Shown: piece after piece, positions 1 to 62,543 of the stretch
How the letters are laid out: the number at the start of each line of letters is the position of its first letter
How positions within the stretch are numbered: the first letter of the stretch is position 1
Assembly (NCBI GenBank): GCA_047631715.1
Contig: JBLICC010000001.1
Coordinates: 1-64,000, forward strand
Origin: Alteromonas naphthalenivorans
GTDB lineage: Bacteria; Babelota; Babeliae; Babelales; CAIQNR01
Direction of reading: 5' to 3'
DNA: 64,000 bases
The notes under the pieces: generated by a model
What the model was told of the DNA's origin: nothing
Database searches by the model: none
Seen by the model: only the letters and a program-made list of their open reading frames with translations
Position numbers and translations under genes: made by a program

Positions 1-370
1 GCAATTGATAGTTTGGATCTGTATATAAAGAAATTGCATGTTCTATATTTTCTTTCTTCATAGGTATTGGTATTGGATTTGTATCATCAATTCCTAAATC
101 CTCAATCAGGCTATTGATGGTCTCAAAGATATTATCGTCAGGATTGTTTGTACTAAAAGGTAAAGTAACTATTTTTCCATCCTTAGACTTAAGCTTAATG
201 GCTGAATCATGATTAAGAATATCTGCTGCTGAAAAAGACCCTGCCAAAAATCCTAAAGATGCCTGCGAAACAAGATTATATGGTTGCATTGTATCTGCTG
301 CTGGCACCGCTGCACCATGCAAACCGATTGTCGAAAATAAGCTAAAAGCTAATAATAATTTTTTCTTCAT
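1..370 (-). CDS. Partial (N-terminal) secreted Skp1-like domain protein, paralog of 1730..3679, runs off the window edge; LRRs presumably follow
   Basis: ATG at 370 with GGAG RBS; translates MKKKLLLAFSLFSTIGLHGAAVPAADTMQPY...LIEDLGIDDTNPIPIP..., nearly identical to the 5' end of 1730..3679. Confidence 0.85.
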   Translation of the reverse strand, partial: MKKKLLLAFSLFSTIGLHGAAVPAADTMQPYNLVSQASLGFLAGSFSAADILNHDSAIKLKSKDGKIVTLPFSTNNPDDNIFETINSLIEDLGIDDTNPIPIPMKKENIEHAISLYTDPNYQL

Positions 371-388
371 TTGTTTCTCCATTATTTA

Positions 389-1699
389 TTATTTATTCAT
401 TAATAATAGTACTTTGCAATCCTGTGGCACCTGTGCTCTAATTTGGTCTTTTTGTTCTTTTGGAATTTGGTTGAAACTAAGGCTGAGCCATTTTAATGCA
501 GGTAAGTTATTAAAGGTCTGTGGATCAATAGTAGTGATTTGGTTATTAGTGAGCTGGATCCATTCTAGTGCAGGTAAGTTATTAAAGGTTTGTGGGTCAA
601 GAGCAGTTATTTGATTGTTATGAAGGTAGAGATGTGTTAATGCAAGTAAGTGAGTAAAGGTTTGAGGATCAATAGTAGTGATTTGGTTATGATCGATGTT
701 GAGATATGTTAATGCAGGTAAGTTATTAAAGGTCTGTGGGTCAATAGCAGTGATTTGGTTGTTATTGAGTTCGAGATGTTCTAATGCAAGTAAGTTATTA
801 AAGGTCTGTGGGTCAATAGCCGTGATTTGGTTGTTATAAAGGAAGATCGATTCTAATGCAGGTAAATTAGTAAAGGCCTGTGGATCAATAGTAGTGATTT
901 GGCTGTCACTAAGCCAGAGAGTTTCTAGTGCAGGTAAATTAGTAAAGGTTTGTGGGTCAATAGAAGTGATTTGGTTGTTATTGAGTAAGAGACATCTTAC
1001 TCCCGAAAGATTTAAATTTCTTAAACCTCTTAAAGAGACAATGTTTTTATATTTAAGATTAAGAGTTCCATTTTCAATTTCAGGTATTTTATTTGCATCG
1101 ATCAAGTTCTGAATAGAAACATGTTTATGTGAACGATGTGCATAGTTATTAATTCTATAATTTACGTTATTTTTTTGTGTGAATTCACCTTGTAATACAA
1201 TATTATTATTTACAGTATCGTGAGCAAGATTATTTATATCTCTATCCATATCCATTTGTTGCAAAACAGTACGAGCAGGAGCAGCATGATACACATCGGC
1301 AGTGCTATTAAGGGGATTGTTTAACCATGCAATATAGAATGGTTCCAAAAAATATTTTGCATCAAGATAATCAAGTGCTACTAGTAAACTTTCAGGAGTA
1401 ACCTGTGTGGCTCTTTGTTCGGAATAAGCTACTGGTAATACATAACCAGGATCTGTATATAAACGAATGATATGGTTCAAATGTTTTGAATCGATGTTAG
1501 GTAATGGAATAGCAGGAGCATTTGCATCATTTCCTAAATCACCTATAAGATTATCAATAGTTGTACTATGAATGTTTGCAGGCATATTAAATTCTTTGCC
1601 ATCATTTGATACAACTTTAATTACATTCACTACTGGCGCCGCTGTACCTTGCAAACCGATTATCGAAAATAAGCTTAAAGCTAATAATAATTTTTTCAT
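389..1699 (-). CDS. Secreted Skp1/BTB-POZ-like + leucine-rich-repeat protein (about 8 LRRs)
   Basis: Signal peptide MKKLLLALSL; IKVVSNDGKEF..STTIDNLIGDLG..IPLPNIDSKHL..LLVALDYLDAK resembles Skp1; 24-aa LxxLxLxxNQITxIDPQTFxxLP repeats; start 1699 chosen from GGAG RBS (ORF track starts at 1711). Confidence 0.85.
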   Translation of the reverse strand: MKKLLLALSLFSIIGLQGTAAPVVNVIKVVSNDGKEFNMPANIHSTTIDNLIGDLGNDANAPAIPLPNIDSKHLNHIIRLYTDPGYVLPVAYSEQRATQVTPESLLVALDYLDAKYFLEPFYIAWLNNPLNSTADVYHAAPARTVLQQMDMDRDINNLAHDTVNNNIVLQGEFTQKNNVNYRINNYAHRSHKHVSIQNLIDANKIPEIENGTLNLKYKNIVSLRGLRNLNLSGVRCLLLNNNQITSIDPQTFTNLPALETLWLSDSQITTIDPQAFTNLPALESIFLYNNQITAIDPQTFNNLLALEHLELNNNQITAIDPQTFNNLPALTYLNIDHNQITTIDPQTFTHLLALTHLYLHNNQITALDPQTFNNLPALEWIQLTNNQITTIDPQTFNNLPALKWLSLSFNQIPKEQKDQIRAQVPQDCKVLLLMNK

Positions 1700-1729
1700 T
1701 TGAATCTCCATTATTTATTTTTTATTTAT

Positions 1730-3679
1730 TTAAAATTCCACGAGGCAATCTGCGGGAACTATAGCTTTAATTTGGACTTTTTGTTCTTGGGGAATTTGGT
1801 TGTTATTGAGTCGGAGAGTGTATAGTTCAGGTAAGTTATTAAAGGTCTGTGGGTCAATAGCAGTGATTTGATTGTTCTCAAGGGCGAGACCTTCTAGTCT
1901 AGATAAATTATTAAAGGTCTGTGGGGCAATAGTAGTGATTTGATTGTTATTGAGGTAGAGAACTTCTAGTCTAGATAAATTAGTAAAGGTTTGTGGGTCA
2001 ATAGCAGTGATTTGATTGTTACCAAGATTGAGGTCTTCTAGTCTAGATAAAATAGTAAAGGTTTGTGGGTCAATAGCAGTTATTTGGTTGTCATCGAGTT
2101 CAAGATTGTATAGTGTAAGTAAATTAGTAAAGGTCTGTGGATCAATAGCAGTTATTTGGTTGTTATGGAGTGTGAGGAATCTTAATTCAGGTAAGTTATT
2201 AAAGGTCTGTGGATCAATAGCAGTGATTTGATTGTTATTGAGTTGGAGAGTGTATAGTTCAGGTAAATTATTAAAGGTCTGTGGATCAATAGCAGTGATT
2301 TGATTGTTACCAAGAGTGAGTTCTTCTAGTCTAGGTAAATTATTAAAGGTCTGTGCGGCAATAGTAGTGATTTGGTTGTTATTGAGTCGGAGACCGTGTA
2401 GTGCAGGTAAGTTATTAAAGGTCTGTGGGTTAATAGCAGTGATTTGATTGTTATTGAGATAGAGACTTTCTAGTCTAGGTAAATTATTAAAGGTCTGTGG
2501 ATCAATAGTAGTGATTTGGTTGTTATTGAGGTAGAGATATTCTAATGCAGGTAAGTTAGTAAAGACCTGTGGGTCAATAGTAGTGATTTGGTTGTGCTCA
2601 AGGTGGAGAGTTTTTAATGCAGGTAAGTGAGTAAAGGTCTGTGGGTCAATAGCAGTGATTTGGTTGTTATTGAGTCGGAGATCGTGTAGTGCAGGTAAGT
2701 TATTAAAGGTCTGTGGGTTAATAGCAGTGATTTGATTGTTATTGAGATAGAGATCGTATAGTGCAGGTAAGTTATTAAAGGTCTGTGGGTCAATAGTAGT
2801 GATTTGGTTGTTATCAAGGTAGAGCCTTTTTAATGCAGGTAAGTTATTAAAGGCCTGTGGATCAATAGCAGTGATTTGGTTGTTTCTAAGATTTAATTCT
2901 TGCAAAGTAGAAAGATCTAAATTTTCTAAACCTTCTAAAGAACCAATGTTTTTATCGCTAAGATTAAGTTCTCCATCTACAATTTCAGGTATTTTATTTG
3001 CATCGATCAAGTTCTGAATAGAAACATGATAAAGTTGACGAAGTGCATGATTATTAATGTTATTAGTATCTTCTGCATTTAGCTCTAAATTAGTGCTTAG
3101 AAGTGCTCCTGGCGCATCAATTCCTAGTCCCATTTGATTATAACCTATAAAAGCAGGAACATTGTGGTGAACTTCTTCTTGTTGATTTTGAGGATGATTT
3201 AACCATGCAGTATAAAACTTTTTAGTTAGATTTTTTGCATCAAGATAATCTAATGTCTGTAAAATACTTAATGGTGTAACATCTTCATCTATTTGTTCTT
3301 GATCTGTTACTGGCAATTGATAGTTTGGATCTGTATATAAAGAAATTGCATGTTCTATATTTTCTTTCTTCATAGGTATTGGTATTGGATTTGTATCATC
3401 AATTCCTAAATCCTCAATCAGGCTATTGATGGTCTCAAACATATTATCGTCAGGATTATTTGTACTAAAAGGTAAAGTAACTATTTTTCCATCCTTAGAC
3501 TTAAGTTTAACGGCTGAATCATGATTAAGAATATCTGCTGCTGAAAAAGACCCTGCCAAAAATCCTAAAGATGCCTGCGAAACAATATTATACGGTTGCA
3601 TTGTATCTGCTGCTGGCGCCGCTGCACCATGCAAACCGATTGTCGAAAATAAGCTAAAAGCTAATAATAATTTTTTCAT
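1730..3679 (-). CDS. Secreted Skp1/BTB-POZ-like + leucine-rich-repeat protein (about 16 LRRs)
   Basis: Signal peptide; VKLKSKDGK..TINSLIEDLG..PIPIP..ILQTLDYLDAK; 16 NQI-containing 24-aa repeats; AGGAGG RBS. Confidence 0.88.
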   Translation of the reverse strand: MKKLLLAFSLFSTIGLHGAAAPAADTMQPYNIVSQASLGFLAGSFSAADILNHDSAVKLKSKDGKIVTLPFSTNNPDDNMFETINSLIEDLGIDDTNPIPIPMKKENIEHAISLYTDPNYQLPVTDQEQIDEDVTPLSILQTLDYLDAKNLTKKFYTAWLNHPQNQQEEVHHNVPAFIGYNQMGLGIDAPGALLSTNLELNAEDTNNINNHALRQLYHVSIQNLIDANKIPEIVDGELNLSDKNIGSLEGLENLDLSTLQELNLRNNQITAIDPQAFNNLPALKRLYLDNNQITTIDPQTFNNLPALYDLYLNNNQITAINPQTFNNLPALHDLRLNNNQITAIDPQTFTHLPALKTLHLEHNQITTIDPQVFTNLPALEYLYLNNNQITTIDPQTFNNLPRLESLYLNNNQITAINPQTFNNLPALHGLRLNNNQITTIAAQTFNNLPRLEELTLGNNQITAIDPQTFNNLPELYTLQLNNNQITAIDPQTFNNLPELRFLTLHNNQITAIDPQTFTNLLTLYNLELDDNQITAIDPQTFTILSRLEDLNLGNNQITAIDPQTFTNLSRLEVLYLNNNQITTIAPQTFNNLSRLEGLALENNQITAIDPQTFNNLPELYTLRLNNNQIPQEQKVQIKAIVPADCLVEF

Positions 3680-3750: not shown

Positions 3751-3916
3751 ACAGGGGGGGGTGCGTAAAGATGAGCTTAAAAGACAGGATTTAAGGTCAT
3801 AGAGCTACGTGAGCTATTGCATTGTTATTGTGATGAATTTTAAAATAAACGAGAATGAGCTTATTTTCGATGAATTTTATTTTTTAAGAGAAAACTAAAT
3901 AGATGGTAGTAAAGTT

Positions 3917-4033
3917 GAGTCATCCTGAGTGGGCACCGTTAGGTGGTTGTATCGAAGGGTGTTAAAGAAAATCGTTCTCTTTTATCCTTCGATACAATTT
4001 TTCGTTATCACTTAAAATCACTCAGGATGACTC
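3917..4033. repeat. REP/MITE-like palindromic element, full copy
   Basis: Perfect 15-bp terminal inverted repeat GAGTCATCCTGAGTG/CACTCAGGATGACTC with inner TTGTATCGAAGG/CCTTCGATACAA; related copies elsewhere in the window. Confidence 0.8.
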
Positions 4034-9519: not shown

Positions 9520-10377
9520 TTATTTATTTTCTTGTTCTGCCCGGATTTGTGCAGCTTGAGCACGTAATGTTTTTGCACGATCAAGATTATGTGGATGTGA
9601 TTGTGGAAGTAAATCGTTAAAACTTTTTAAAAAATATTTTATTTCGGTAGGTAGTTCTTGTTCGATTTCTTGTTTTTGAGCCTGGTTTTTTTTGTATGAA
9701 TTTTCGAAAAAATTAGCTCCTGCTTCTAAAATAGATGGATCCAAAGATGCTTCTCTGTCTGCTCTTGATTCTTGATAGCGCATAAGTTTAAAGTATGATT
9801 TTATTCCTACGGTAACTGTAGCAAGAGATGCTAATGTAGAAAGTATTTTTCCTCTACCACTTAATCTTACTGATCGCCATGTTAAAAAAGTACCAAGAGG
9901 AATTGTTGAAGATAATTGTGTGCGGTGAGACTCATCATTATTGGTAACATGTCTGCATTCATGACCTAATACAAAATCCTGTTCTTCTTGAGGATTTGTA
10001 GAATTTGGTTTAAAATTATCATCGAGTATTACTATGATATCATTGTTATAAGAGTTTACGGATACTGCTTTAAGTATTGTCGTTGAGTTATAGACTGGGT
10101 AGTTAACGTTAACACCTTTTTTTTTGCAGAAATCTTTAATCTTTTGTAGTTGGTCTGCTATTTCTGTATTTTGTGCTTGAATTATAGATTGTTCTTTAGC
10201 ATCGTTAACAAAGATTTTCTTTTTATAGTTTATACTTGTATAGACTCCAAGAGAACCAGCGACTCCCAAGGCAACAGATGGTGCTTTGATAAATCGCATA
10301 AATTTACCTGCAGCTGCATGGTTTTGAGTTATAACCAATAAACTTAACCCTAGAATTACTTTTAATAGTTTAGACAT
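9520..10377 (-). CDS. Secreted M48-like zinc metallopeptidase
   Basis: LGHECRH (HExxH), QESRADREA, SHP motifs; signal peptide; GGAG RBS before 10377. Confidence 0.75.
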   Translation of the reverse strand: MSKLLKVILGLSLLVITQNHAAAGKFMRFIKAPSVALGVAGSLGVYTSINYKKKIFVNDAKEQSIIQAQNTEIADQLQKIKDFCKKKGVNVNYPVYNSTTILKAVSVNSYNNDIIVILDDNFKPNSTNPQEEQDFVLGHECRHVTNNDESHRTQLSSTIPLGTFLTWRSVRLSGRGKILSTLASLATVTVGIKSYFKLMRYQESRADREASLDPSILEAGANFFENSYKKNQAQKQEIEQELPTEIKYFLKSFNDLLPQSHPHNLDRAKTLRAQAAQIRAEQENK

Positions 10378-10508
10378 TTTAATCTCCATTCTTCGTTTTT
10401 TTTAGCTTTCGCCATTTTTTAATTTAATATTCTATTTGAATATATATCAATATGAGATAATTGCAAGTGGTGGGTAGTATTAAAATGAGCTTAAATTATT
10501 ATTGATAG

Positions 10509-17360: not shown

Positions 17361-18242
17361 ATGAATTTTAAAAAAATAAGCTTATTTGTATTGTTATCTT
17401 TGTCTGTTCAATCAGTTTCTTCTTTGAATGTGAAGTTTAATCTTCCAGGTCCAGCTTTTGATGTTCCCAATGCTTCACCTACTGTTGCAGGTGCAATGGG
17501 AGTGTTTTTAATTAATAATATTGGATATCAATGTGCGGTTACGGCGCAATATCTGTATTTTTCTCGAGAAGCAAGATTGCAAGAAAGTAATCCGACAATT
17601 AATCATGATGTTATTAAAGCATTAAAGAAAATGTGTTTTGATAAAAAAGGCGTTAAGATTGATCGTGTTTATTATGGTCCACAGTCTCCAACGGTAGGAA
17701 TTCGAGGGGGTGCAGCAGTTGTGAAAAGTCCATTCGGGAATTTGTTAATTCTTGGTTCTGGGTATGGTGCAAGTAAGAATGAAAAAGATATTCTGCCAAT
17801 AACTCCAGAGCAAGTTGAATTTGTTATGGGGCATGAGTGTAATCATGTTTTGACTAATGATGTAAATAAAAGATTTTTACTTGATTCAGCTATCTCAACA
17901 GGGATAGTTATGTCCAATTCAGTTTATAATCAAGAGATGGCTATGGCATTTAGTCTTTATAAGATGTTCGGTTATTCACGATTTATTCGTAACCAAGAAT
18001 TTGAGTGTGATTATTCTTCATCTAATGATCCTAAAGTTATACAAGCTGGTATTGATCTTTGGCAAGGTTTGGCAGATAAAGAACAATACTTAGATATTTT
18101 TACTCGTATAAATACAAAAATTCAACATGCAATTTTTTCAACGCATCCTTCTTTTTCAAAACGTTTAGATTATTTAAAACTACGTTTAAAAGAACTTGAA
18201 CAAAAATCAACAAAAGAAACTCAAGCTGTTCCAGCGGCATAA
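17361..18242 (+). CDS. Secreted M48-like metallopeptidase
   Basis: MGHECNH, QEFECD, STHPSFSKRL; signal peptide. Confidence 0.78.
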   Translation: MNFKKISLFVLLSLSVQSVSSLNVKFNLPGPAFDVPNASPTVAGAMGVFLINNIGYQCAVTAQYLYFSREARLQESNPTINHDVIKALKKMCFDKKGVKIDRVYYGPQSPTVGIRGGAAVVKSPFGNLLILGSGYGASKNEKDILPITPEQVEFVMGHECNHVLTNDVNKRFLLDSAISTGIVMSNSVYNQEMAMAFSLYKMFGYSRFIRNQEFECDYSSSNDPKVIQAGIDLWQGLADKEQYLDIFTRINTKIQHAIFSTHPSFSKRLDYLKLRLKELEQKSTKETQAVPAA

Positions 18243-18426
18243 CTTTCTTTTATAGATAGTATATAAATTTAGGCTCAGCAGATTAATTTTGTTGGGTCTA
18301 TTTTTTTGTTTAAGTTAGTTAATGTTAAAGCATCAATAGATTCGTTAATTGAGTGTTTTGGGCAGATCTGGTATTTTAATAATTTATTATTAATCTATTA
18401 ACTTTTTCTTTTTGGGAGCTCTTTTC

Positions 18427-19272
18427 GTGAATTTTAAGAAAATAAGTTTGTTTGTGCTAGTTGTTTTATCTATTCAAAATAGTATAACAGCTGCTGATAG
18501 GGCTTTTAATCCGAGATACTCATTGCCTAGAAATATTGATAATAGAGCGTTGAGACCATCTAATACAGTAGGCGAAACTGTTATAGGGGCTGTTGCGTTA
18601 TTTGGTGGTGTTTATGTTTTAAATAGAATTAGCAGAGGTATTCCTTACTTATATTATATGCGAGAAGCTTCTATTCAAGAGTGTAATCCTTCAATGAATC
18701 ATAATGTTATCAATGAGTTAAAAAATAAATGTTTAGAAAAAGGTGTAATCGTTGATCATATATATTATGATCCTGAATTTTTTTCTATACGTGGCGATGC
18801 AGAAATTATGGAAACCCCTTTGGGCGTATTGTTGTTTTTAGGTGCTGGTTATGGTGCTAGTAGCAACGAAAAAGATATTCTTTTGTTATCTCCAGAACGC
18901 GTTGAATTTATTATAGGAAGAGAATGTAGTCGTGTTCTCTATAATCATTCTCAAAAAAGAGATGCTTTGAATAGTGCTTTAGCCGCATCTGGTTTAGGGA
19001 TATTGAGTATTCTAGTAAGTCCTAAATTAGATCGTGTTCAAAAGTATAATGCTGATTATTATGCTTCTACAGATGCTCAAGTAATAGCAAGTGGCGCAGA
19101 GCATTTTGAAGCAACGTACAGTAGAGAGCAATATAAAGATATTATTCAAAGATGTATGAAATATATTAAGGATTCATTGTTCTTTATTGACTATTCTCCT
19201 TCTGCTAAAAATCGTTATCTAGAGCTTAAGATGCGAGCTCAAGAGTTAAAGAGAAACAAGCAGGTTTTGTAA
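18427..19272 (+). CDS. Secreted M48-like paralog, catalytically degenerate
   Basis: Clear similarity to 17361..18242 (GYGAS.NEKDIL..PE.VEF) but GHECNH is replaced by GRECSR; GTG start after GGAG. Confidence 0.7.
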   Translation: MNFKKISLFVLVVLSIQNSITAADRAFNPRYSLPRNIDNRALRPSNTVGETVIGAVALFGGVYVLNRISRGIPYLYYMREASIQECNPSMNHNVINELKNKCLEKGVIVDHIYYDPEFFSIRGDAEIMETPLGVLLFLGAGYGASSNEKDILLLSPERVEFIIGRECSRVLYNHSQKRDALNSALAASGLGILSILVSPKLDRVQKYNADYYASTDAQVIASGAEHFEATYSREQYKDIIQRCMKYIKDSLFFIDYSPSAKNRYLELKMRAQELKRNKQVL

Positions 19273-45673: not shown

Positions 45674-47749
45674 TTATCGTAATTCTATAAAGTTTATACT
45701 TGTATCAACTCTACCAAGTGTACCGTTTTCTACACTGTTGGCAGTAAAGGTCATGTGACCTCCGGGGTTAATAATGGCAGCAGAAGGATCGGTATTTAAT
45801 GTTATTACGGTATCGCTTTTGGGGCTTAGAAGCACAGAACCAAGATACGTTCCACCAGTAAAAGATGTTGCAGAAGTATCGTACTCAACAGCAGAAAAAG
45901 GATTGGCGGCTGTATAGTTTGCTCCTACAAGGGTGGTGCCAACATACACGTTGTAACTTACTGTTTTTAAATGACTCGAAGCATAAAATCCCAAATTGAT
46001 TTTTGTGTACGTATTATTTATTTTACCATCGTGCACTAATTTGTTACGCAGCGTTATAACAGGAATTTCTGTATCATTTACAGTTTTATTACCTTTTATG
46101 CCTCCTCGTACACCTAGATAGGTTTCTTTACCATCTATAAATCCTGCAGATGACCCAGAGAAAATAGTTAAGTTTGAGGTGTTGGTTGTGTTAGATACGC
46201 TATAAAAAAGAGGAAGTTGTGGAATGGCGATGCTAGGGATTGTGTGCGCATTTGAGTATCTATCAATATGGGCTTTTTCTAAAACTCCTGTAAAGGGGTT
46301 TTCTATAGAATAGACAATTGCTCCAAAGCCAAGCCACTGCCAGTGAATTTGATAAATATTACCTTTGGTTGGATCGAGTGTTACGTTGCTATTACCTGTA
46401 CCATCAAATTTATCGATGTTCCAACTACTTTGTGGGGTAAATGCTTCTGAAGGGGAAGAACCAGTTACGGTTTGAGTAAAAGTTCCTTCGCAAGATGAGG
46501 CATTGGTAAGTGAGTAGGTACCCGTGTGGGTAGAAACTGCATCCCAAGATAGAAAAATAACCGTATCTCCTCGCGCTTGAGCTGTCCATCCTTTGCCAAC
46601 ATCTGTGTAATCTGCAGCAGCAATTTCGTTTGCTGTTATTGTGGCGTCACTAGAATTAGTTACAGAGACATTATTTTTTATAACATCATCAAGTGTAATG
46701 ATAATGGTTTCTTCGTCGGAAGAGGCTGTTGAGACAGTAAGTGTACGTACTTCGGGCGAGCCTCCGCTTCTTCTCATAACTCCAAAGACATCATCTTTAT
46801 AGCCAAAGAAAAAACCATTAGACTCGGTTCCTGCACCTATATATTGAGTTGATCCAGTTACTCCTGATGAAAAAATACCACTCATTCTACAAGATGATCC
46901 TTGACCAGGATTATAACTAATTCTACCAGTAGATACAGCGAGTGCGGATGAGTAAGGAGCGGCACCAGAAGACATTTTTAGCATGCTGTTTTCTGTGGTT
47001 ATAACTCCATTTTTATTTGCTTTAGAGGTAACAACTCCTGGATGAATGCCATACATGAAATCTAATTGTAAAATTGGTGTTAGTTCTGCTACTGCTATTT
47101 CTCCAAAAGCGGTATTTGAATTTTTAATATTAACAGACAGAGAATTATCTGATCCAATTAATACGTTTTCGTAATTGCCAGCGGGGTTTCTACCGGCGAT
47201 TACGGAACGCACATTTTCTATATCAGTTGTTGCAGTTAAACCTTCTTCTAATCTACCAGTTAAACCTTTTGAGGCTTGTCTATGAAAAAGAACTTGTAAT
47301 CTTAAAGCTGTTTGGTCGATTACTCCATTTGCGTAGCGCGCTCTAAAAAAGCGTGTTATAGGAATAACTGAATGAGGAGATTCTAAAGTAGGATCAATAA
47401 TAAATAATGTAGTTGAATTATCCCAATTAGTACCGTCGGGAGAAAATTCTAAATATAATGTACCCGTGGCGGTGCTTGGTTCGGCATGAAAATCGGTAGT
47501 AATCAAACTAAATTCTGATATATCTAACGTTTCGCTTACGTAGGTAGTGTTTGCAGCAAGTGGAGTTGTTTCAGGTGTATCATATAACATGTAGCCAAGA
47601 GAGCGCTTTATATCTGTGTTTTTAAGAATGTTTGATTCGGGTTCTTTTGCAGATGTTGAGGCAATTGTTTCTATTTTTTTTAGTGAAAGTTCTTTGCTGA
47701 ATGAGGTCGAGTAAAATGACAAACTTAAAAAAAGAAAAACCCAAATCAT
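45674..47749 (-). CDS. Secreted phage/virus-structural-like beta-sandwich protein (short paralog)
   Basis: Signal peptide; one FSPDG.NWD..FRARY.NG module plus TAFGE..YNPGQG..NGFFFGY..WQWLGFG domain shared with 47760..51404. Confidence 0.7.
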   Translation of the reverse strand: MIWVFLFLSLSFYSTSFSKELSLKKIETIASTSAKEPESNILKNTDIKRSLGYMLYDTPETTPLAANTTYVSETLDISEFSLITTDFHAEPSTATGTLYLEFSPDGTNWDNSTTLFIIDPTLESPHSVIPITRFFRARYANGVIDQTALRLQVLFHRQASKGLTGRLEEGLTATTDIENVRSVIAGRNPAGNYENVLIGSDNSLSVNIKNSNTAFGEIAVAELTPILQLDFMYGIHPGVVTSKANKNGVITTENSMLKMSSGAAPYSSALAVSTGRISYNPGQGSSCRMSGIFSSGVTGSTQYIGAGTESNGFFFGYKDDVFGVMRRSGGSPEVRTLTVSTASSDEETIIITLDDVIKNNVSVTNSSDATITANEIAAADYTDVGKGWTAQARGDTVIFLSWDAVSTHTGTYSLTNASSCEGTFTQTVTGSSPSEAFTPQSSWNIDKFDGTGNSNVTLDPTKGNIYQIHWQWLGFGAIVYSIENPFTGVLEKAHIDRYSNAHTIPSIAIPQLPLFYSVSNTTNTSNLTIFSGSSAGFIDGKETYLGVRGGIKGNKTVNDTEIPVITLRNKLVHDGKINNTYTKINLGFYASSHLKTVSYNVYVGTTLVGANYTAANPFSAVEYDTSATSFTGGTYLGSVLLSPKSDTVITLNTDPSAAIINPGGHMTFTANSVENGTLGRVDTSINFIELR

Positions 47750-47759
47750 AATAATCCTT

Positions 47760-50700
47760 TTATATTTTCTCTATAAAGTTAAGGCTTACATTTGCTTCTC
47801 CGCCAGATCCAGCTGAAGTTATACCAGTTATAGTAATATCATCTCCTGGTTGCAAAATTCCAGAAGCAGGATCGTTTACAAGTGAAATATATTCGTTTCC
47901 TGTTTTTCCTAATGCAAGTTTAAATAATAGAGTTCCTCCTGAAAATCCAGTAGCAGAAGTGTCTTTTTGAACAAGAGATGTATTAGTTTCTATATCAGCA
48001 AATGATGCTCCCACAAGATTAGAGTTTGCATAAAAGCCTAGAGTAATAGGTTTTGTATGGTCAACTGACATAGAGATAAAATTTAATTTTACGGGGTCTT
48101 TATTGATTTTACTATTATATAAAAAACTGTTGCGTATGCTTAAAATAGGGCTTTCTGTTGTATCAATAGTAGTAGTTGTGGCAGAAACGCCTCGTACCAC
48201 TCCAAAAGGGTTTGGTTTTCCTTCTATAAATCCCCCAATAGAACCAGATTTAAGAGTAAGATTTGTAGTGTTGCTATCATTTTTTACTTGATAAAAAAGT
48301 GGTAGAGTTGGGTTGTCTACACTTGGAGTTAGAGATGAATTTGAAAAGGCTTCAATATGGCATACCTCAAAATTACCTGTTGAAGCATTTTCTATAGCGT
48401 AGGTAATTGCTCCAAATCCTAACCATTGGTATCGTATTTGGTAAACATTTCCCTTAGTTGTATCAAGAGTTACTCCTCCAGATCCAGTACCATCAAATGT
48501 ATCAATACTCCAGTTGGCTTGTGATGTAAATGTATCGGTTGTACCGGTTCCAACAAGTGTTGATGCAAAAGTTCCAGCAGCACTTGTTACATTTGGATCA
48601 GCAAGTGAATAGGATCCTGGATGTGAAGAGCTATCCCATGAAAGGAATAATACAGTATCATTCACAGCTTTTGCTGTCCATCCTTTGCCAACATCACTAT
48701 AATCAGCAGCAGCAATTTCATTTGCAGTAACTGTTGTATCGGTACCACTGGTAACAGCAACGTCAGTTTTAATTTGGTTATCAAGTGTAATAGTTACATT
48801 GTCTGCTGAGGATGCTTTTGAGCTTACAGTGAGTGTTCTTACTTCGGGTTGCCCCCCTGTTCTTCTACATACACCAAATTCGGTACCTTGATAACCAAAG
48901 AAAAATCCATTTTGAGTATCTCCAATTCCTACGTATTGATAAGAGTTGGCAACACCAGTTGTATAAAGAGCGGTAAACCTACAAAGAGCTCCTTCTCCTG
49001 GAGTGTAGGTAACAGTGCTACGGGTTTGTGAAGTTGCACTAGATTCAGCAGCGGCTCCTGTTTGTAAGTTAATCATTCGATCTAATTGAGTGATTGCTCC
49101 GCTTTGATTTGTTCGGGAATCCATTCGAAGTGAATTTACATTATAGGCAAAATGTTCAACTACTTGTGCATGAGGTTGTGCAACTGCAAGTTCACCAAAT
49201 GCAGTTACCGACCCTTGTCCCTGAAGTTGTACACCGAGTGAATCATCAGGCCCAATTAATATATTTCTATAATCACCAGCTGAGTTTTTACCTACTAAAA
49301 CAGATCGGCTGAGTTGTGCTTCCGAATCATCAGTTAAGCCGGTGTTTAGTCTGACAGTGTCTAAAATTCCGTTTACTTTAAGCGTAGCTTCTAAATAAAA
49401 ATTTGCTTGTCCAGTGCCTCCATTTGTATATTTAACTCTAAAGCCATCTAAAGCGGTTGGTATTGTTATTTTTTTATAACCAGTGCTAATGTCTGTAGAG
49501 CTAAATGTATACAATCGAGTAAATTGAATGGTTTGGCCTGTTTGAACATCATCAGTAAATTGAACTTCAATACCGTTTGTTGCAGAAATAACATCAGTTG
49601 TGATGAAAAGTTCAATAAAATTGAAACCATCAGTATCGGTCCATGCAGAGGTGTAAATAGCATTTGCAATTAGTGTAGTGGTTCCATCACTTACATTGTT
49701 AAATGCACTACCATCTGCAGGTGTGTTTACAAAATCACCATCAGGTTGCTGACCAACTCCGATTGATCTTGTCAAGTTTGATGTCATTCCATTTACAATT
49801 GTTGAATTTAGTGTTAAAACTTGTGCCGATATAGATTTAGTATAAAATTCTGTTTCAAAGAAAAAATCTGTTGTGTCAGAAGACTGAGTATTTGCAAAGA
49901 TATATCTAACATAGGGACCAAAACTTGGTGCTCCTAAAAAGTCATAAGAATTAATAGTTGCGTAGGGAGGTGCTAATGTTCTGATGGTATCTGTTCCAGC
50001 AGAGTCTGAATACCATTGAAATCTCATTTGACCGGTATTTGAACATAAAATTTTTGTAGCTACTTCAGTGTATCCTTCTAATGTTAAAAGACCGCTTGAA
50101 TAAGCCCCACCAACTACAGCGGCTGAAGCATGAGTTGCGGCAGTGGTACCAAAAGCACCACGTTCACTGATAGTAAGTGAAGTAGTCCCAGTCTTAGCAG
50201 TATAAGCAATAAATTCAGTTCCAATATAAATATAACCACTAGCAGCAAAACCAGATACATCGGTAAAAAGAGTTTGGGCTCCAGTGGCTCCAGATGCTAA
50301 TTCTCCTGAAAGTGTTGTTCCACCTAAATTGGTAGTTGTTCTAAAAGCAGAACCATCTTGTTTTGTATTGGAATAAGCGCCTTGAGGTTCTTTACCCATA
50401 CCTATCGCTCTTACAATGGTACTGTCAGAATCATCCCCAACAGTTTGGTTTAATGGTAAGTTTCCTTGTCGAAATACCCCATAATAAGTGTTTACACGAA
50501 AACTAGTTGTTTTACTGGCAGAACCGTTTTCAAATCTTATTCTAAAATATCGTTTTCCTTTTACCGCTGTATGAAATTCATGAATATTTGCAGCTACAGT
50601 AAATCCCGTTACTGGAAAAGTATCCCAAAGTACCCCATCATTTGAAAAATCAAAATATTCAGTTCCTGCAGTATTACTTTTAAGACTTACCATCACATCT

Positions 50701-51404
50701 GGTTGTGTATTCAATTCAGATGCTCCGATGTAGACTCCGGTTACGGTAGCACCATCTTCATGAGTTGCTTCGGTTGAATTAAAAGCTCCTCGAGTGACTG
50801 TTAAATCATTGCTTGAAATATTGGTGATACTCATATATTCGGAATCTATTTTAATGGTTGTATTATTATCAAATACAGTAGCATCAATAACGGTGACTGT
50901 TGTATCGATAGCGCTTAATTGTCCGCCTTCATTTAAAGTAGTTTGTCCGCCAACATTAGTAGTTGAAGAATTACTTATAGATTGTATTCCAGTTGCGGGA
51001 TTAGTTTCAGTCGGTTTTTCTGTATGAAGTAGTGTTTGTAGTCGAAAGGCAGTTTGTGCTACTGCATCATTGACATAACGAATTCTATAATATTGATTAA
51101 GTGTTAAAAGGGAGTGGTGGAGATCCTGTGTTAAATCATTTATTGCAAAACTTTTTGTTCTATCCCAGTTGATGTTGTCGGGAGAAAAATCCACATGTAA
51201 GGTTCCTGTTGCAGTAGATGGTGTTCCATAAGCAGTCACTAATATCGAAGAGAATTCGCTAGCGTTTGTACTTTCTCCGGTAAAAGTTGCATCTCCTGTT
51301 AGTGTTGCTGTTGTACTATTTTTAGTATCGATGAAACCTTGCCCGTTAATAGGGAGAATATAAAGTAAGCAAAGTGCTAAATAGAGAAAGAGTTGTTTTT
51401 TCAT
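47760..51404 (-). CDS. Large secreted phage/virus-structural-like protein (1214 aa)
   Basis: Signal peptide; four repeated beta-sandwich modules, two RGAF.(S/T)T..ATH inserts, C-terminal YQWLGFG domain. Confidence 0.72.
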   Translation of the reverse strand: MKKQLFLYLALCLLYILPINGQGFIDTKNSTTATLTGDATFTGESTNASEFSSILVTAYGTPSTATGTLHVDFSPDNINWDRTKSFAINDLTQDLHHSLLTLNQYYRIRYVNDAVAQTAFRLQTLLHTEKPTETNPATGIQSISNSSTTNVGGQTTLNEGGQLSAIDTTVTVIDATVFDNNTTIKIDSEYMSITNISSNDLTVTRGAFNSTEATHEDGATVTGVYIGASELNTQPDVMVSLKSNTAGTEYFDFSNDGVLWDTFPVTGFTVAANIHEFHTAVKGKRYFRIRFENGSASKTTSFRVNTYYGVFRQGNLPLNQTVGDDSDSTIVRAIGMGKEPQGAYSNTKQDGSAFRTTTNLGGTTLSGELASGATGAQTLFTDVSGFAASGYIYIGTEFIAYTAKTGTTSLTISERGAFGTTAATHASAAVVGGAYSSGLLTLEGYTEVATKILCSNTGQMRFQWYSDSAGTDTIRTLAPPYATINSYDFLGAPSFGPYVRYIFANTQSSDTTDFFFETEFYTKSISAQVLTLNSTIVNGMTSNLTRSIGVGQQPDGDFVNTPADGSAFNNVSDGTTTLIANAIYTSAWTDTDGFNFIELFITTDVISATNGIEVQFTDDVQTGQTIQFTRLYTFSSTDISTGYKKITIPTALDGFRVKYTNGGTGQANFYLEATLKVNGILDTVRLNTGLTDDSEAQLSRSVLVGKNSAGDYRNILIGPDDSLGVQLQGQGSVTAFGELAVAQPHAQVVEHFAYNVNSLRMDSRTNQSGAITQLDRMINLQTGAAAESSATSQTRSTVTYTPGEGALCRFTALYTTGVANSYQYVGIGDTQNGFFFGYQGTEFGVCRRTGGQPEVRTLTVSSKASSADNVTITLDNQIKTDVAVTSGTDTTVTANEIAAADYSDVGKGWTAKAVNDTVLFLSWDSSSHPGSYSLADPNVTSAAGTFASTLVGTGTTDTFTSQANWSIDTFDGTGSGGVTLDTTKGNVYQIRYQWLGFGAITYAIENASTGNFEVCHIEAFSNSSLTPSVDNPTLPLFYQVKNDSNTTNLTLKSGSIGGFIEGKPNPFGVVRGVSATTTTIDTTESPILSIRNSFLYNSKINKDPVKLNFISMSVDHTKPITLGFYANSNLVGASFADIETNTSLVQKDTSATGFSGGTLLFKLALGKTGNEYISLVNDPASGILQPGDDITITGITSAGSGGEANVSLNFIEKI

Positions 51405-51421
51405 TTAGTTAGTCCTTAATC

Positions 51422-52939
51422 TTAATAGGGGGTAATACTTATATTTTTAATAGTTGGTAGCGTTATACTTGCAAGGTCTACTATGTCTGTGTCTGCTATT
51501 ACATTTGCTGTACTGTAACTCAATGAATAATTATTTTGTGGTTGTGTTCCAATTGTATCTCTGTTGTTGAATGCAAAATTATATGCTAAAAGATTGATAG
51601 CGCTTGCTGTTGAATCTCTTATTCCTATACCTTTGTTTTTAGCATTACTGATGTTATTAGATACATTTGAATGTTCAATATAGATATTTGTAGTGGTGGA
51701 TACCAGTTCTATACCAATTCCAAATCCGTTAGTATTCCCATCATTTGAGAAAGAAGAGCAATTTGTAATAGTGGAAGTTCGTGTATCGTTACCTAGAATA
51801 AATCCTGCTGCAATGGAGCTTGGATTAGTACTTGCCAGTTGACCAAAAGTATTACAGTTTTTAAAAATACATCCCTTTGTAGCCCCTTTGGGAGTGCTCG
51901 TATCTCTCACTGTTCTAAATCCGGCAGCCTCCATTCCAAGGGTAGCATTGGAAACAGATTGTCCACTTGCAGTGCATGCTATAAATTGATTGTTAAAACA
52001 GGATTCTTGTAAAAATCCTGCAGCTGTAACACCCGAACTATTATTTGATGCTTTGCAATTTTCAACAATACTATTATTAGTATCATTAAAATAAAATCCT
52101 GCACCAGTTCCGGTTGTAACGCTTGATGCTGCATAGGTTGGCGAAGAAGCGTTTCCATTAGATATACAATTTTGTATTTGTGTAGTTGTACATGTTATGA
52201 GGTAAAATCCAGCTCCAATGAGATCGCCTTCGCAAAGAGAAGCACTTGAATTTTGAATAATTGGGTATTTGCAGTTATCAATGTAATAACCAACTCCCTG
52301 AAATGTTTTACCAATATTGCGTACGCTATCGGTATGGCAATGTGAAATTGTTAAATGGTTGGTATAATTGGCGTAAATTCCATAAGCATTTTGTGTTTGA
52401 GGAACCGTAGAGAATGTTAAACAGTTGTCTATAACACAATGTGCAATTTCGTTTGGATCTACAGCACCGGCAAGGGTAATACCACCGGTAGTGGCAACGT
52501 TGTTGATGTTGCATGAGTTACATTCAACATTACTGATTTTAATATTATGAACGTTTTGATTAACTAAAATTCCGGATTTACCTACGCTGTAGATAGTTCC
52601 GTTTTTTATTTAGATATTATTCATATATTTAGCAAATTAAATGCCGTTCATACTGGAGTAAGTTTTACCTGTAATAGTATAGCCATTGAGGTCTACAGTA
52701 ACGTTATTTGAATTAATGAGAATTGTTCGAGTTGTTGAGACAGACGTGATGTCTTCGGTTAATACGTATATTCCAGGGCTAGTAATATTGAAGGTTTTCG
52801 CTAAAGTTTGTGCTCCAACTGCCATAAAATTACTTTTACTCACATAGGTAACAAGTTTTGATGATCCATATGATGCTGTTTGAGAAGTAAAGATGCAACT
52901 GAGGGTTAGAATTATAAATATATCTTTAAATTTGTTCAT
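51422..52939 (-). pseudogene. Right-handed beta-helix protein interrupted by two in-frame TAA codons (52637-52639, 52610-52612); possibly an assembly artefact
   Basis: A single frame of 506 codons; N-terminal third is nearly identical to 54372..55871, which has GAA at both stop positions; the rest of the frame is open. Confidence 0.8.
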
Positions 52940-52965
52940 TATATTTTTTCTCTCTATGGTGACTA

Positions 52966-54345
52966 TTAAGTTGTAACATCGATATTTCCACGGTTATCTT
53001 TTAAACTAGAGCGGGAAGATTTAAAGTTAATCTGTTGTATAGAGTTCAGAGTTGAATGAGTGACGCCGTAATTTATAGCATTTCCAAAAGCTATGTTTGA
53101 AGCTAGAAAGCTTAATGAATTTTCTTCTTCTTGAATTCCCCAACTTCCTGCTGTTCCATGATTATAATACAGTTTATTTTCTTCGATAATGCATCTTGAG
53201 GTATTTATTAGATGAATGCCATATCCTTTTCCTGTTCCACCGTTATTATAATTACAGGTGGAATGATCTACGATTACTCCGTAAGTATTAGAAAGTATAA
53301 TTCCACAGCCTTTTGAGGTAGTTAACGAACCTCCGGTGTTGCCAAAAGAAGTTATGCGGGTAAAGCAATTACTGGTTCCTGTTGTAATACATATCCCAGA
53401 TGCATTGCCTGTGGTGAGCACTTTTTGACACGAGGTTGTGCAATCAAATACTTGGTTATAACTTGCATTGGAATGAAAATAAATGCCACGAGAATTGGTG
53501 GCTGCCGTGTTATAGAATGATGTACTGTTTTTAAAGGTATTTCCTTGTCCTCCTGAGCATTCTATGCCCGCCGCTCCCCCCACACTTGATGAGTTTCCAT
53601 TTGTTTCTATGTTATCAACTTCAAATGCAATACAGTTGTTGAGGTGTAAGCCTGAAACGGTGTCTCCGGAATTGTTATTTATGGCACAATTATTGATAGA
53701 GCAATCTATGCAGTTGGTAGCCGTTATACCAAAAGCGTTATAGCCTGTTGGTGCACGAACTCCAATAAATGAACAATTGTGTACGGTAATGTTTTTATTA
53801 GAAGTTAAAGATAATCCAAAGTTGTTTTTTTTATTTGTTAAACTTTTACCAGCAAAGCAATTATTAATAAACATGGTGTCTGTACCGGTTTGCACTTCAA
53901 TACCGCCGCTGCGTGCTTGTGCAATAGTAAGATTATTAAGTGTAATATTAAAGCAGTTCTGGCCCATTATAATTGCTGTTCCGGTGATGTTATTAATATT
54001 ACCGTTTTTAATGGTTATGTTAGAAAGTCCATCGGCAATATTAATACCAGTTATATTCTTGTTAGAAGAGCCCGCATTTTTTTGTGAGAGGGTAAAATTT
54101 TGTAAATTGATCGTTACATTATTGGAAGTAATATTAATGATTGTACCGGATGTAATAAAATCTACATTTGTTCCACTACTAAAATGATAGTTGCCAGGTT
54201 CATTAAGTAACACTGGTTTAAAAGATTGAGGAGCGATAAGCGCATATTTTAAAGGATTCGAATATATGATTTGGACTCCACGTGTTTGTCCGTAGCAAGG
54301 TGTTAATGTAATGATTATATATATAATAAAATTATATTTTAACAC
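52966..54345 (-). CDS. Secreted right-handed parallel beta-helix protein
   Basis: PGNY..NNVTINL.NFTL..GI.I..NITIKNG.I; repeated GI.L..C..N turns. Confidence 0.82.
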   Translation of the reverse strand: MLKYNFIIYIIITLTPCYGQTRGVQIIYSNPLKYALIAPQSFKPVLLNEPGNYHFSSGTNVDFITSGTIINITSNNVTINLQNFTLSQKNAGSSNKNITGINIADGLSNITIKNGNINNITGTAIIMGQNCFNITLNNLTIAQARSGGIEVQTGTDTMFINNCFAGKSLTNKKNNFGLSLTSNKNITVHNCSFIGVRAPTGYNAFGITATNCIDCSINNCAINNNSGDTVSGLHLNNCIAFEVDNIETNGNSSSVGGAAGIECSGGQGNTFKNSTSFYNTAATNSRGIYFHSNASYNQVFDCTTSCQKVLTTGNASGICITTGTSNCFTRITSFGNTGGSLTTSKGCGIILSNTYGVIVDHSTCNYNNGGTGKGYGIHLINTSRCIIEENKLYYNHGTAGSWGIQEEENSLSFLASNIAFGNAINYGVTHSTLNSIQQINFKSSRSSLKDNRGNIDVTT

Positions 54346-54371
54346 CTTATATTTCCTATATTTTAACCTTA

Positions 54372-55871
54372 TTATACATGAGCACTAGCAGCTATAAAGT
54401 TCCATCCTTTTGTATTTGATTGTGTACTATCATAAGTATCTAGATCTGTGCCATACGTAGGAACGGTATATTTGTTTGATGATAGTTCGGTACCTACTGG
54501 AGTTGTATTTGTATTGATATTACCAGCACATGTGTTTTCGAAGAAAAAAGTGTATGTATTAGCAATAACTTCATCTTCATGAATACCGAAAACTGAGCTA
54601 GTGCTGCCTGCAGTGTTAGAAAAACAATTATTCCCTTTAATAACGCACCGTAAAAGAGATGCTCCTGATAGATAAATGCCATATGCTGATCCGCTCATTC
54701 CATTATTACCAAAAGAAAGAGAGTCTTCGATTATACAGAATCGAGTGTCGCTTCCAAGTAAAAATCCCGCAGAGTTGGTTATAGAGCCAAGTGCTGTTTG
54801 GCCCATTGCAGTACAATTTTTAAATATACATGCAATGGTAGCACCTTTGCTTGCTGCTCGAGTAGTTTCAAATCCAGTAGCATTGCCTGTTGCAGATGTG
54901 GTACGTGTTTGGTTGCCATTTGCAGTACAGTGTAAGAATCTATTATTAACACATGAACTTACATAGAAACCAGATACGCTACCATTGCCACCATTGTTAA
55001 TACTTTGGCAATTATCAATGAGACTGTTGTTGGTATCTTCAAAGTAATATCCATATCCTGCTCCTAGTACTACATCTGCAGCATTTGTTCCAGATGATTC
55101 GCAGTTGATTAATTGCGCACTTGTGCAGGTTAAAAGATAAAAGCCAGCTGCTGTTGTATCACCTTCAGATAGATAAGCAGAGGTATTTGTAATAATTGGA
55201 TATTCGCTGCTTTTGATATAAATACCATAGCTACTAAATGTATTTCCAATATTTCGAACATTTTCTGCACGGCAGTTGTTAATGGTTAAATATTTTGCTT
55301 CGTTAGCATAAATTCCATAAGCATTTTGTGTTTGAGGAACCGTAGAGAATGTTAAACAGTTGTCTATAACACAATGTGCAATTTCGTTTGGAGTTACAGC
55401 TCCGATAAGGGTAATGCCACCGGTAGTGGCAACGTTGTTGATGTTACATGAGTTACATTCAACATTACTAATTTTAATATTATGAACGTTCTGATTAACT
55501 AAAATTCCGGACTTTCCTACGCTATAGATAGTTCCGTTTTTTATTTCGATATTGTTCATATCTTGAGCAACTTCAATGCCGTTCATACTGGAGTCAGTTT
55601 TACCTGTAATAGTATAGCCATTGAGGTCTACAGTAACGTTATTTGAATTAATGAGAATTGTTCGAGTTGTTGATACAGACGTGATGTCTTCGGTTAATAC
55701 GTATATTCCAGGGCTAGTAATATTGAAGGTTTTCGCTAAAGTTTGTGCTCCAACTGTCATAAAATTACTTTTACTTACATAGGTAACAAGTTTTGATGAT
55801 CCATACGATGCAGCTTGCGAAATATTCATAAAGCTTAAAGCCGCAATGATAAATAATATTTTTTTATTCAT
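54372..55871 (-). CDS. Secreted right-handed parallel beta-helix protein
   Basis: Signal peptide; ITSPGIYVLTEDI..NNVTVDLNGYTI; PbH1-like repeats. Confidence 0.85.
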   Translation of the reverse strand: MNKKILFIIAALSFMNISQAASYGSSKLVTYVSKSNFMTVGAQTLAKTFNITSPGIYVLTEDITSVSTTRTILINSNNVTVDLNGYTITGKTDSSMNGIEVAQDMNNIEIKNGTIYSVGKSGILVNQNVHNIKISNVECNSCNINNVATTGGITLIGAVTPNEIAHCVIDNCLTFSTVPQTQNAYGIYANEAKYLTINNCRAENVRNIGNTFSSYGIYIKSSEYPIITNTSAYLSEGDTTAAGFYLLTCTSAQLINCESSGTNAADVVLGAGYGYYFEDTNNSLIDNCQSINNGGNGSVSGFYVSSCVNNRFLHCTANGNQTRTTSATGNATGFETTRAASKGATIACIFKNCTAMGQTALGSITNSAGFLLGSDTRFCIIEDSLSFGNNGMSGSAYGIYLSGASLLRCVIKGNNCFSNTAGSTSSVFGIHEDEVIANTYTFFFENTCAGNINTNTTPVGTELSSNKYTVPTYGTDLDTYDSTQSNTKGWNFIAASAHV

Positions 55872-58199: not shown

Positions 58200-58220
58200 A
58201 CTCGGTACCTCTTTCTTAGA

Positions 58221-61200: not shown

Positions 61201-61289
61201 ACGGGAACCTGTGCGCCGCTTGTTCCAACACCGTGTGCAAATCGTCCTGTGAGTAGGGTGGCTAGCAGCAAGATAACGTACCGTTTCAT
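58221..61289 (-). CDS. Large secreted right-handed beta-helix protein (1022 aa)
   Basis: Signal peptide, Ser/Gly linker, ISTPGTYLL..DVVLDLGGQTL, many GI.F....I.I.N..I rungs. Confidence 0.87.
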   Translation of the reverse strand: MKRYVILLLATLLTGRFAHGVGTSGAQVPVGTGISSSGGSSSGGSSSSYSSDPIPLSVGSFDTGAATALTISTPGTYLLIDTITLASATTAMITISADDVVLDLGGQTLDGGGLGTGIVISSTNNVTIKNGTIRDHIGIGISIPAAMVGLTIENITINDSVGDAIQFAGTSFNTSLKNIIIVGNGTATGKGIEVIGVAQNFYLDTFAIDSLSGTGMHAIEFTTASYGITISNGRITDIGTGATTDAINFGVTKASHNVLIDDVKIATVTGQGIDLSDSYNVLLRDITISNVAAGSGVEVGDLSYDIVFENFSISNVTTVAPLDGGIKFGTGAYGILLNNGSISNIQGGVSSSNGLSFTGTSYGIEIKDVAITNVSSGRGIDFNASEDINMNNVIVSSASRDGIVVGVAGSAALGFANKHGFNFNNITINNSGLTGITFNSRPKGINLEHIKINGAGSDGIKMTNRTHGMTMKDITIGNADGNGINATGIVKDILIRDFTISEPTTSGIDFAASCTGVTMINGTISSAGNKGINIIYDSHTALIDNVAITNSTSDAILTGSLSHNVAILNCNLGYPGANGINVGLSSHGIDIQDCNFTSCTTNGMNFGADCSRVFISDFNISAHITDGIVFGARAHNVTMQKGAISSRNNLGEGIDIGANSYLITMDNLSIEKGLAGILVAAGANNITILNSNLSNFLAAASNYGIKFSGGSSILVQDCKVANCNETTSGSDHAGVWFISCNDVTCINVESSGHTGDQAYGFFLSSVGGGFFDNCRALRNSGTSATTAEGAVGFYLSAATGCLFKDCIANANTGAVTSYGFRLTSASIGNNFETCNALRNNTTTNGTTSVAYGFYSTSGESNQWFNCSANGNAAIGTSGTSDSGKGAFGFALESEKQSSLKNCIARGNGRTTSHTGNATGIYLDASTQYCLIDGCQSSANCTTASSGTTAYGIYDASTDTDNIIINCTAYGNKDAASPVVTTNYYMDLPIGGTTKANWPVTTGTMDSIIEFANLPNLYNIDIE

Positions 61290-61323
61290 TCATCTCTCCT
61301 TTTGTCTTATACTCTTTATTTAT

Positions 61324-62523: not shown

Positions 62524-62543
62524 TCTTTGTTCCTCTTTATAAA

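Follow-up and report, generated by a model that had tools for sequence, protein, structure and literature searches.

The first 64,000 nucleotides of contig JBLICC010000001.1 (the window) open, at the contig end, with an array of three head-to-tail minus-strand open reading frames (ORFs), one of them cut by the contig start (Table 1; gene 1, product P0002; gene 2, product P0001; gene 3, product P0003). As the original prediction had claimed, all three encode a predicted Sec signal peptide followed by a Skp1-like domain, and the two complete genes end in leucine-rich repeats (LRRs). We consider it probable that these are exported proteins that act as one-chain substrate adaptors of the Cullin-1 (Cul1) ubiquitin ligase of a protist host. 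After Sec export they would pass through a type II-like secretin system, the Skp1-like core would dock on the Cul1 N-terminus at the seat of host Skp1, and the linker behind it would position the repeats as an F-box protein does in a Skp1–cullin–F-box (SCF) ligase. Host proteins would then be captured and ubiquitinated, with each paralogue serving its own targets.

At the level of sequence comparison, the core is established as Skp1 family, and as the BTB core portion of Skp1 rather than a generic BTB domain. P0001 matched Pfam Skp1_POZ at E 9.6e-9 (35.7 bits, above the curated cut-off of 21.9), with P0002 (E 0.14) and P0003 (E 0.006) each below that cut-off when searched singly, and none of the three matched PF00651 (BTB/POZ) at E<=10. 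Across the family, 22 of 24 domains matched Skp1_POZ and 2 of 24 matched BTB at E<=0.1, weakly. Skp1 chains accounted for 26 of the 27 PDB sequences that phmmer listed for the P0001 core and 22 of the 23 listed for the P0002 core (best E 2e-4), a profile of seven paralogues reached Skp1 in the PDB at E 1.7e-9 and Elongin C at 0.75, and hhalign of the core to eukaryote-type Skp1 gave 97% over 102 columns. Generic BTB and Elongin C were ruled out by the Pfam result together with the paralogue profile. All four Skp1 motifs quoted in the original prediction are present in P0001; the match covers the BTB core (human Skp1 ~1–124), and the F-box-binding helices lie outside it.

Structural models agree with this assignment. 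The AlphaFold2 model of P0001, built from five bacterial rows (predicted local distance difference test, pLDDT, 82.9), has the Skp1 strand and helix order, with core topology B1-B2-A2-B3-A3-A4-A5, followed by a linker and an LRR solenoid. The proposed Foldseek check of the N-terminal domain came out as expected: among the matches listed for a core-only model (pLDDT 85), all were Skp1 chains at a template-modelling (TM) score of ~0.6, an outcome favoured by an alignment of 26 bacterial and six eukaryote-type Skp1 rows. Leads from the ESM Atlas for the core all stayed below 0.9, the named ones being all of Skp1/Elongin C type, and a WD40-type member gave no usable match there. A quick-method tree of 134 cores over 123 columns was poorly resolved, with the window clade grouping together and most other bacterial rows forming a second group; a single origin and several origins are each neither shown nor excluded by it.

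Stogios 2005 describes Skp1 as little besides this core fold, with helices 7–8 binding F-boxes (PMC1257465). Eukaryotic Skp1 shares with the proteins described here the BTB core topology, PxP(N) and (N/D)YLD; it is a stand-alone protein with helices 7–8, whereas the proteins here lack these helices and join the core to a signal peptide and to repeats of substrate type. Judged by profile search, the loss of the F-box-binding C-terminus from the fusions is clear: PF01466, the model of helices 7–8, matched in 0 of 261 phylum genomes and in none of the bacterial core domains (0/24 and 0/5), against 6/6 eukaryote-type Skp1 controls. The complete genes do reach their LRRs, but not, as had been claimed, directly; a family-specific linker of ~65–75 residues and an LRR N-cap lie between.

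What follows the core in relatives of the window proteins bears on the cullin. The motif LPx[ED][LIM] occurs 22–62 residues past the equivalent of Skp1 N108 in 18 of 56 bacterial domains outside the window clade (mean 0.35 and maximum 4 in 1000 shuffles; for an amphipathic motif shuffling is not a strict control, and paralogues inflate motif counts), and a looser pattern occurs in 22 of these 56, from at least 14 genomes of six families, vs only 2 of 56 eukaryote-type rows. The strict motif begins 14 of 25 Babelota F-boxes, and with a Babelota F-box profile 11 of 71 segments behind the core scored higher than the 99th percentile of shuffles, the window proteins scoring below zero. The F-box part present in relatives is helix 1 only, not the complete three-helix domain. 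In F-box proteins Pro2 and the acidic residue 4 contact Cul1 and mutating them weakens binding, while in beta-TrCP Cul1 contacts through Skp1 alone can suffice (PMC3237615). On the simplest reading, the relatives would be Skp1/F-box-helix/propeller fusions; the window clade has a different linker. Such fusions support a Cul1-adaptor role for the family and, since the Cul1-touching first helix is kept, suggest that Skp1 and F-box protein have collapsed into one chain in many relatives.

Across 21 repeats of the two complete window genes the LRR framework is near-invariant (partly imposed by the search pattern), with entropies of 2.3–3.5 bits at positions 2, 3, 5 and 7 of LxxLxLxxN; pN/pS stood at 0.49/0.43 at exposed concave strand positions and at 0.09/0.26 elsewhere, a pattern as expected of a diversifying binding face. 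On another contig of the same genome (C17), a gene for a signal peptide, RING-H2 and LRR protein (L002:611-1456, minus strand) lies directly upstream of a Skp1-like paralogue, and its product carries the N-cap and repeats of the family's LRR module (46% identity over 147 aa): the module was exchanged between E3-type and Skp1-type heads. Signal peptide plus RING genes were also noted, by regular expression only, on three more contigs (C28, C13 and two on C53).

The family extends well beyond the array. The source genome holds eight copies on five contigs, including a second tandem pair. Among the 261 genomes of the phylum set, a seven-row profile found members in 17 and a 24-row profile at E<=1e-5 in 74 (278 matches), while the independent Pfam Skp1_POZ model found 46 (45 over the cut-off), vs none of 14 control genomes. 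Searching 1.84 billion representatives returned 142 matches, close relatives with the order signal peptide, core, linker and LRR coming first, then other fusions and ordinary Skp1s; ten metagenomic relatives were assigned to bacteria by signal peptides and architecture. A word-index homolog search gave two matches, both in the source genome, and the family profile gave one among longer proteins. Scanning all GTDB genomes with a degenerate motif yielded 48 loci, nine of them true Skp1-like (eight Ca. Babeliales, one 'uncultured bacterium') and the other 39 rejected as mostly response regulators, a single exact motif being too narrow to prove absence from other phyla. Signal-peptide-like starts were seen in 50 of 59 distinct ORFs at the best-matching loci, six of the other nine being cut at the 5' end. 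Tandem arrays are frequent in the family. WD40 forms the C-terminus of most ORFs read by eye; for 25 less obvious proteins, Pfam assigned WD40/propeller to six, LRR to five (one of them the RING protein) and ankyrin to one, the rest matching no repeat family. F-box proteins use these same C-terminal folds (WD40, LRR, ankyrin, other propellers) for their substrates. Taken together, the exchangeable C-termini, the F-box-helix-1 motif in relatives and the RING head on the same LRR module favour a Cul1 adaptor.

Some relatives lack repeats. Short core-only proteins with a signal peptide (L026:912-1394, plus strand, 161 aa; L018:1420-1866, minus strand) are candidate Cul1 decoys, and other proteins string together two or three Skp1-like cores (P0025, P0043, P0029, P0017, L011 and L053, some ending WD40- or LRR-like). 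A decoy role could be extended to the whole family: the core would bind Cul1, block SCF assembly and displace host Skp1–F-box pairs, with the repeats localising the decoy. The core-only members, the multi-core proteins without known repeats (P0025, P0043) and a core unable to accept F-box proteins, the PF01466 region being absent, would all fit. We nevertheless think this unlikely, as variable, substrate-type, tandem-expanded repeats and a RING on the same LRR module amount to a diversity needless for a pure decoy.

The residues expected to face Cul1 were mapped on human Skp1 numbering in 56 eukaryote-type, 63 other bacterial and 15 window-clade rows (percentages below are in this order; a few clade members were binned among the 63). 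We take positions 108–111 of Skp1 (N108/Y109/D111) to touch Cul1, although a literature search turned up no paper that confirms it, and the PxPN motif is a Cul1 contact in Skp1 (PMC1257465). Conservation was 95/84/87% for D33, 100/71/80% for P46, 86/70/67% for P48 and 98/94/87% for L110; D33, G35, P46, P48, the aromatic at 109 and L110 persist across the window clade at 35–45% overall identity.

Several observations weigh against the adaptor reading. Conservation of N49 (70/41/13%), N108 (91/71/40%, with Asp in 47% of the clade) and D111 (71/76/40%) is low in the window clade; of the 15 clade rows only P0001 has the whole of PxPN, vs 18 of 63 other bacterial and 35 of 56 eukaryote-type rows, and P0002 has PxP without the Asn. 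With the F-box-helix motif in 1 of 18 clade rows in addition, this clade lacks some of the usual Cul1 contact. Pfam F-box models found no match in the window proteins and were silent on the post-core segments of five relatives. The closest genome (same genus, 95% complete) had no family match, so the family is dispensable or fast-turning. Sec alone leads only to the periplasm, and signal peptides are no effector mark, being common in the genome (signal-peptide-like starts in 275 of 664 ORFs, ~41% by a hydrophobicity rule) and in the phylum (44% in Chromulinavorax; PMC6561590). In the wider family the Cul1 side is thus plainly conserved; in the window clade it has eroded in part, P0001, with its full PLPN, being best preserved. 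Of the original prediction of a one-piece SCF adaptor with a cullin-contact surface, the assignment to Skp1 and the single-chain layout stood, joined by the loss of the F-box-binding end, and the contact surface held only in part for the clade from which it was drawn.

This erosion leaves room for a clade-specific alternative, in which the core, by drift, now serves as a structural N-terminal cap or for self-association in an adhesin-like LRR protein of the periplasm or cell surface, with cullin binding lost even if other Babeliales members bind. The losses at N49, N108 and D111 and of Skp1 helix A1 and the F-box helix would be in keeping with such drift, as would the LRRs, which Foldseek places with LGR4 and the Nogo receptor (24-residue extracellular type), and the presence in the same genome of a signal peptide plus LRR protein without a ubiquitin domain (P0012). 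The persistence of the other mapped positions at such low overall identity, the complete PLPN of P0001 and an LRR module in common with a RING E3-type protein speak against it, and we judge it a slim prospect, a little slimmer than the decoy.

A further alternative is a partner other than Cul1. Skp1 has links to Sgt1 and Cul7, and the core might mimic it toward Sgt1, a different cullin or RAVE/Rabconnectin, which assembles the V-ATPase, e.g., altering acidification of the vacuole that houses the bacterium. Skp1 is a subunit of RAVE; the Rav1 site includes yeast N139 (human N108), and the N139Y change left SCF intact (PMC11648922). Yet Rav1 uses the hydrophobic surface shared with F-box proteins, which is here replaced by the linker, the F-box Cul1-contact motif of relatives points to Cul1, and Elongin C is matched only weakly by the paralogue profile. 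We hold a partner of this kind to be improbable, the least favoured of the alternatives.

The array belongs to a metagenome-assembled genome of 845 kb in 58 contigs (90% complete, contamination 0.19%), whose source is likely a Babelota (Dependentiae/TM6) parasite of protists in the order Babeliales, as judged from relatives that all fall in one order, the Ca. Babeliales labels of the GTDB loci, the secretion genes and the share of signal-peptide-like starts. The genome encodes two secretins and a T2SSE ATPase, as found likewise in TM6 (PMC4776705). Among the 261 phylum genomes no cullin was found (in a search run without a positive control), and the partner would therefore be a host protein. 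No F-box matched in the source genome, and F-box-like proteins are present in 59 of the 261; one genome (G024) carries at least 25 F-box-like genes along with nine Skp1-like matches, so both routes into SCF can coexist. Giant-virus contigs (L110-L118) were seen to encode full-length Cul1-like proteins.

Secreted cullin adaptors made in one piece have been proposed before; for the Skp1 version we found no precedent in the literature searched. The nearest case is in Protochlamydia, whose expanded PEX1 family of BTB-LRR proteins has been proposed to act on ubiquitination in the host (Domman et al., 2014, PMC4209131); UWE25 has 43 BTB-LRR proteins (Stogios 2005, PMC1257465). Both cases involve expanded tandem arrays of one-chain proteins with a cullin-adaptor fold and LRRs in a protist-infecting bacterium; PEX1, however, has a BTB-family (Cul3-type) domain and type III signals, whereas here the domain is Skp1-family (Cul1-type), the signals are Sec peptides, the phylum is another and WD40, ankyrin and LRR variants occur. 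F-box effectors (Neochlamydia NEX1a F-box-LRR, Legionella AnkB, the F-box protein of Babela, PMC4378268) likewise combine a predicted Cul1 hijack with a substrate repeat domain, but they need host Skp1, which the present fusions would replace. Cul3 BTB adaptors (BTB-BACK-kelch; poxvirus BTB-kelch, PMC3185573) also join cullin and substrate binding in one chain, and their BTB plus following helical box parallels the core plus F-box helix of the relatives; they belong to another BTB-fold family and cullin, and the proteins here have no dimerisation extension. A bacterial Skp1 fusion was not found in the non-subscription literature by searches on Babelota/Dependentiae/TM6 or by more general ones. 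The accessible text of the main Babelota papers has no mention of 'Skp1', that of the Babela paper has one, in a reference title, and the supplements of PMC4776705, its file 1 lying outside the search, have neither Skp1 nor PF03931.

Skp1 has been described as a stand-alone adaptor, and the known microbial entry into SCF is F-box mimicry, not Skp1 mimicry. It seems to us an even call, on the comparisons above, whether Babelota captured a eukaryotic Skp1, cut its F-box-binding end and fused the rest (in many lineages with the Cul1-touching F-box helix 1) to interchangeable WD40, LRR and ankyrin modules, creating a class of single-chain Cul1 receptors with hundreds of genes phylum-wide, a Cul1 counterpart of the Cul3 BTB adaptors that would bypass host Skp1 and F-box competition. 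If true, Cul1 could be entered by a third route that depends neither on the supply of host Skp1 nor on F-box exchange, and nature would have provided a test of how small a Cul1-recruiting surface can be; the protist proteins that these widespread parasites degrade would also come to light. Many secreted proteins of Babelota that have lacked an explanation thereby acquire a function open to testing.

Table 1. Features of the Skp1-like array at the start of the window (minus strand throughout; signal peptides called by eye and a simple hydrophobicity rule).
Feature	Position	Strand	Remarks
Gene 1 (P0002)	1730..3679	-	649 aa: signal peptide, ~30-aa spacer, Skp1-like core, linker, 16 LRRs, C-cap
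Gene 1 predicted Sec signal peptide	3620..3679	-	end approximate; from sequence and hydrophobicity heuristic
Gene 1 Skp1-like BTB core	3191..3520	-	residues 54-163; PxP kept, Asn49 position lost, DYLD at Skp1 108-111
Gene 1 LRR N-cap, 24-residue LRRs with hypervariable concave face, C-cap	1733..3022	-	
Gene 2 (P0001 plus Met)	389..1699	-	436 aa: signal peptide, Skp1-like core, linker, 8 LRRs, C-cap
Gene 2 predicted Sec signal peptide	1637..1699	-	end approximate; from sequence; low pLDDT at residues 1-23
Gene 2 Skp1-like BTB core	1313..1627	-	Pfam Skp1_POZ E 9.6e-9; AlphaFold2 and Foldseek
Gene 2 PLPN, the Skp1 PxPN motif, strand B3	1496..1507	-	motif role from PMC1257465
Gene 2 DYLD, equivalent of Skp1 N108-Y109-L110-D111	1361..1372	-	Asn replaced by Asp
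Gene 2 clade-specific linker	1115..1312	-	at the place of Skp1's F-box-binding helices
Gene 2 LRR N-cap, LRRs, C-cap	392..1114	-	N-cap common to RING-LRR protein of same genome
Gene 3 (P0003), 5' part only	2..370	-	123 aa: signal peptide and first half of Skp1-like core

The start of gene 2 is taken as a Met behind a GGAG site, P0001 being the same protein without it. All three proteins begin with a basic-hydrophobic leader, the intergenic spacers are 30 and 18 nt, and the 5' end of gene 3 is identical to gene 1 at 358 of 366 nt, which marks gene 3 as a recent duplicate of gene 1 by sequence. Eukaryotic contamination was ruled out by the bacterial neighbours (gatCA, MATE, mreC), the uniform GC and the low contamination estimate. 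Contigs of two DNA sequencing runs cover all 30 bins, although no single piece spans the array, and the Skp1-LRR fusion recurs in unrelated assemblies. The two best-matching sequencing runs are ice metagenomes, and no RNA run appeared among those listed. In contigs of two runs, paralogous stretches are joined (window 993/1956 and 162/3605), hinting at further copies or strain variation in array repeat number. Upstream of the array, an imperfect inverted repeat (gtcatcctgagt...actcaggatgac, window 3905-4030), where depth is raised and contigs have loose ends, suggests a dispersed repeat of the REP (repetitive extragenic palindromic) type.

Elsewhere in the window, three related signal-peptide proteins carry a zinc-protease-like GHECxH motif (9520-10389, minus strand; 17361-18242 and 18412-19272, plus strand), the third probably inactive given GRECSR in its place. 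By eye, 45674-63998 (minus strand) holds an extended series of large secreted proteins in which Cys/Asn-rich motifs of parallel beta-helix-like type recur, together with related Thr-rich proteins, and a possible outer-membrane protein, after the beta-helix-like and Thr-rich run, lies at 55872-58199.

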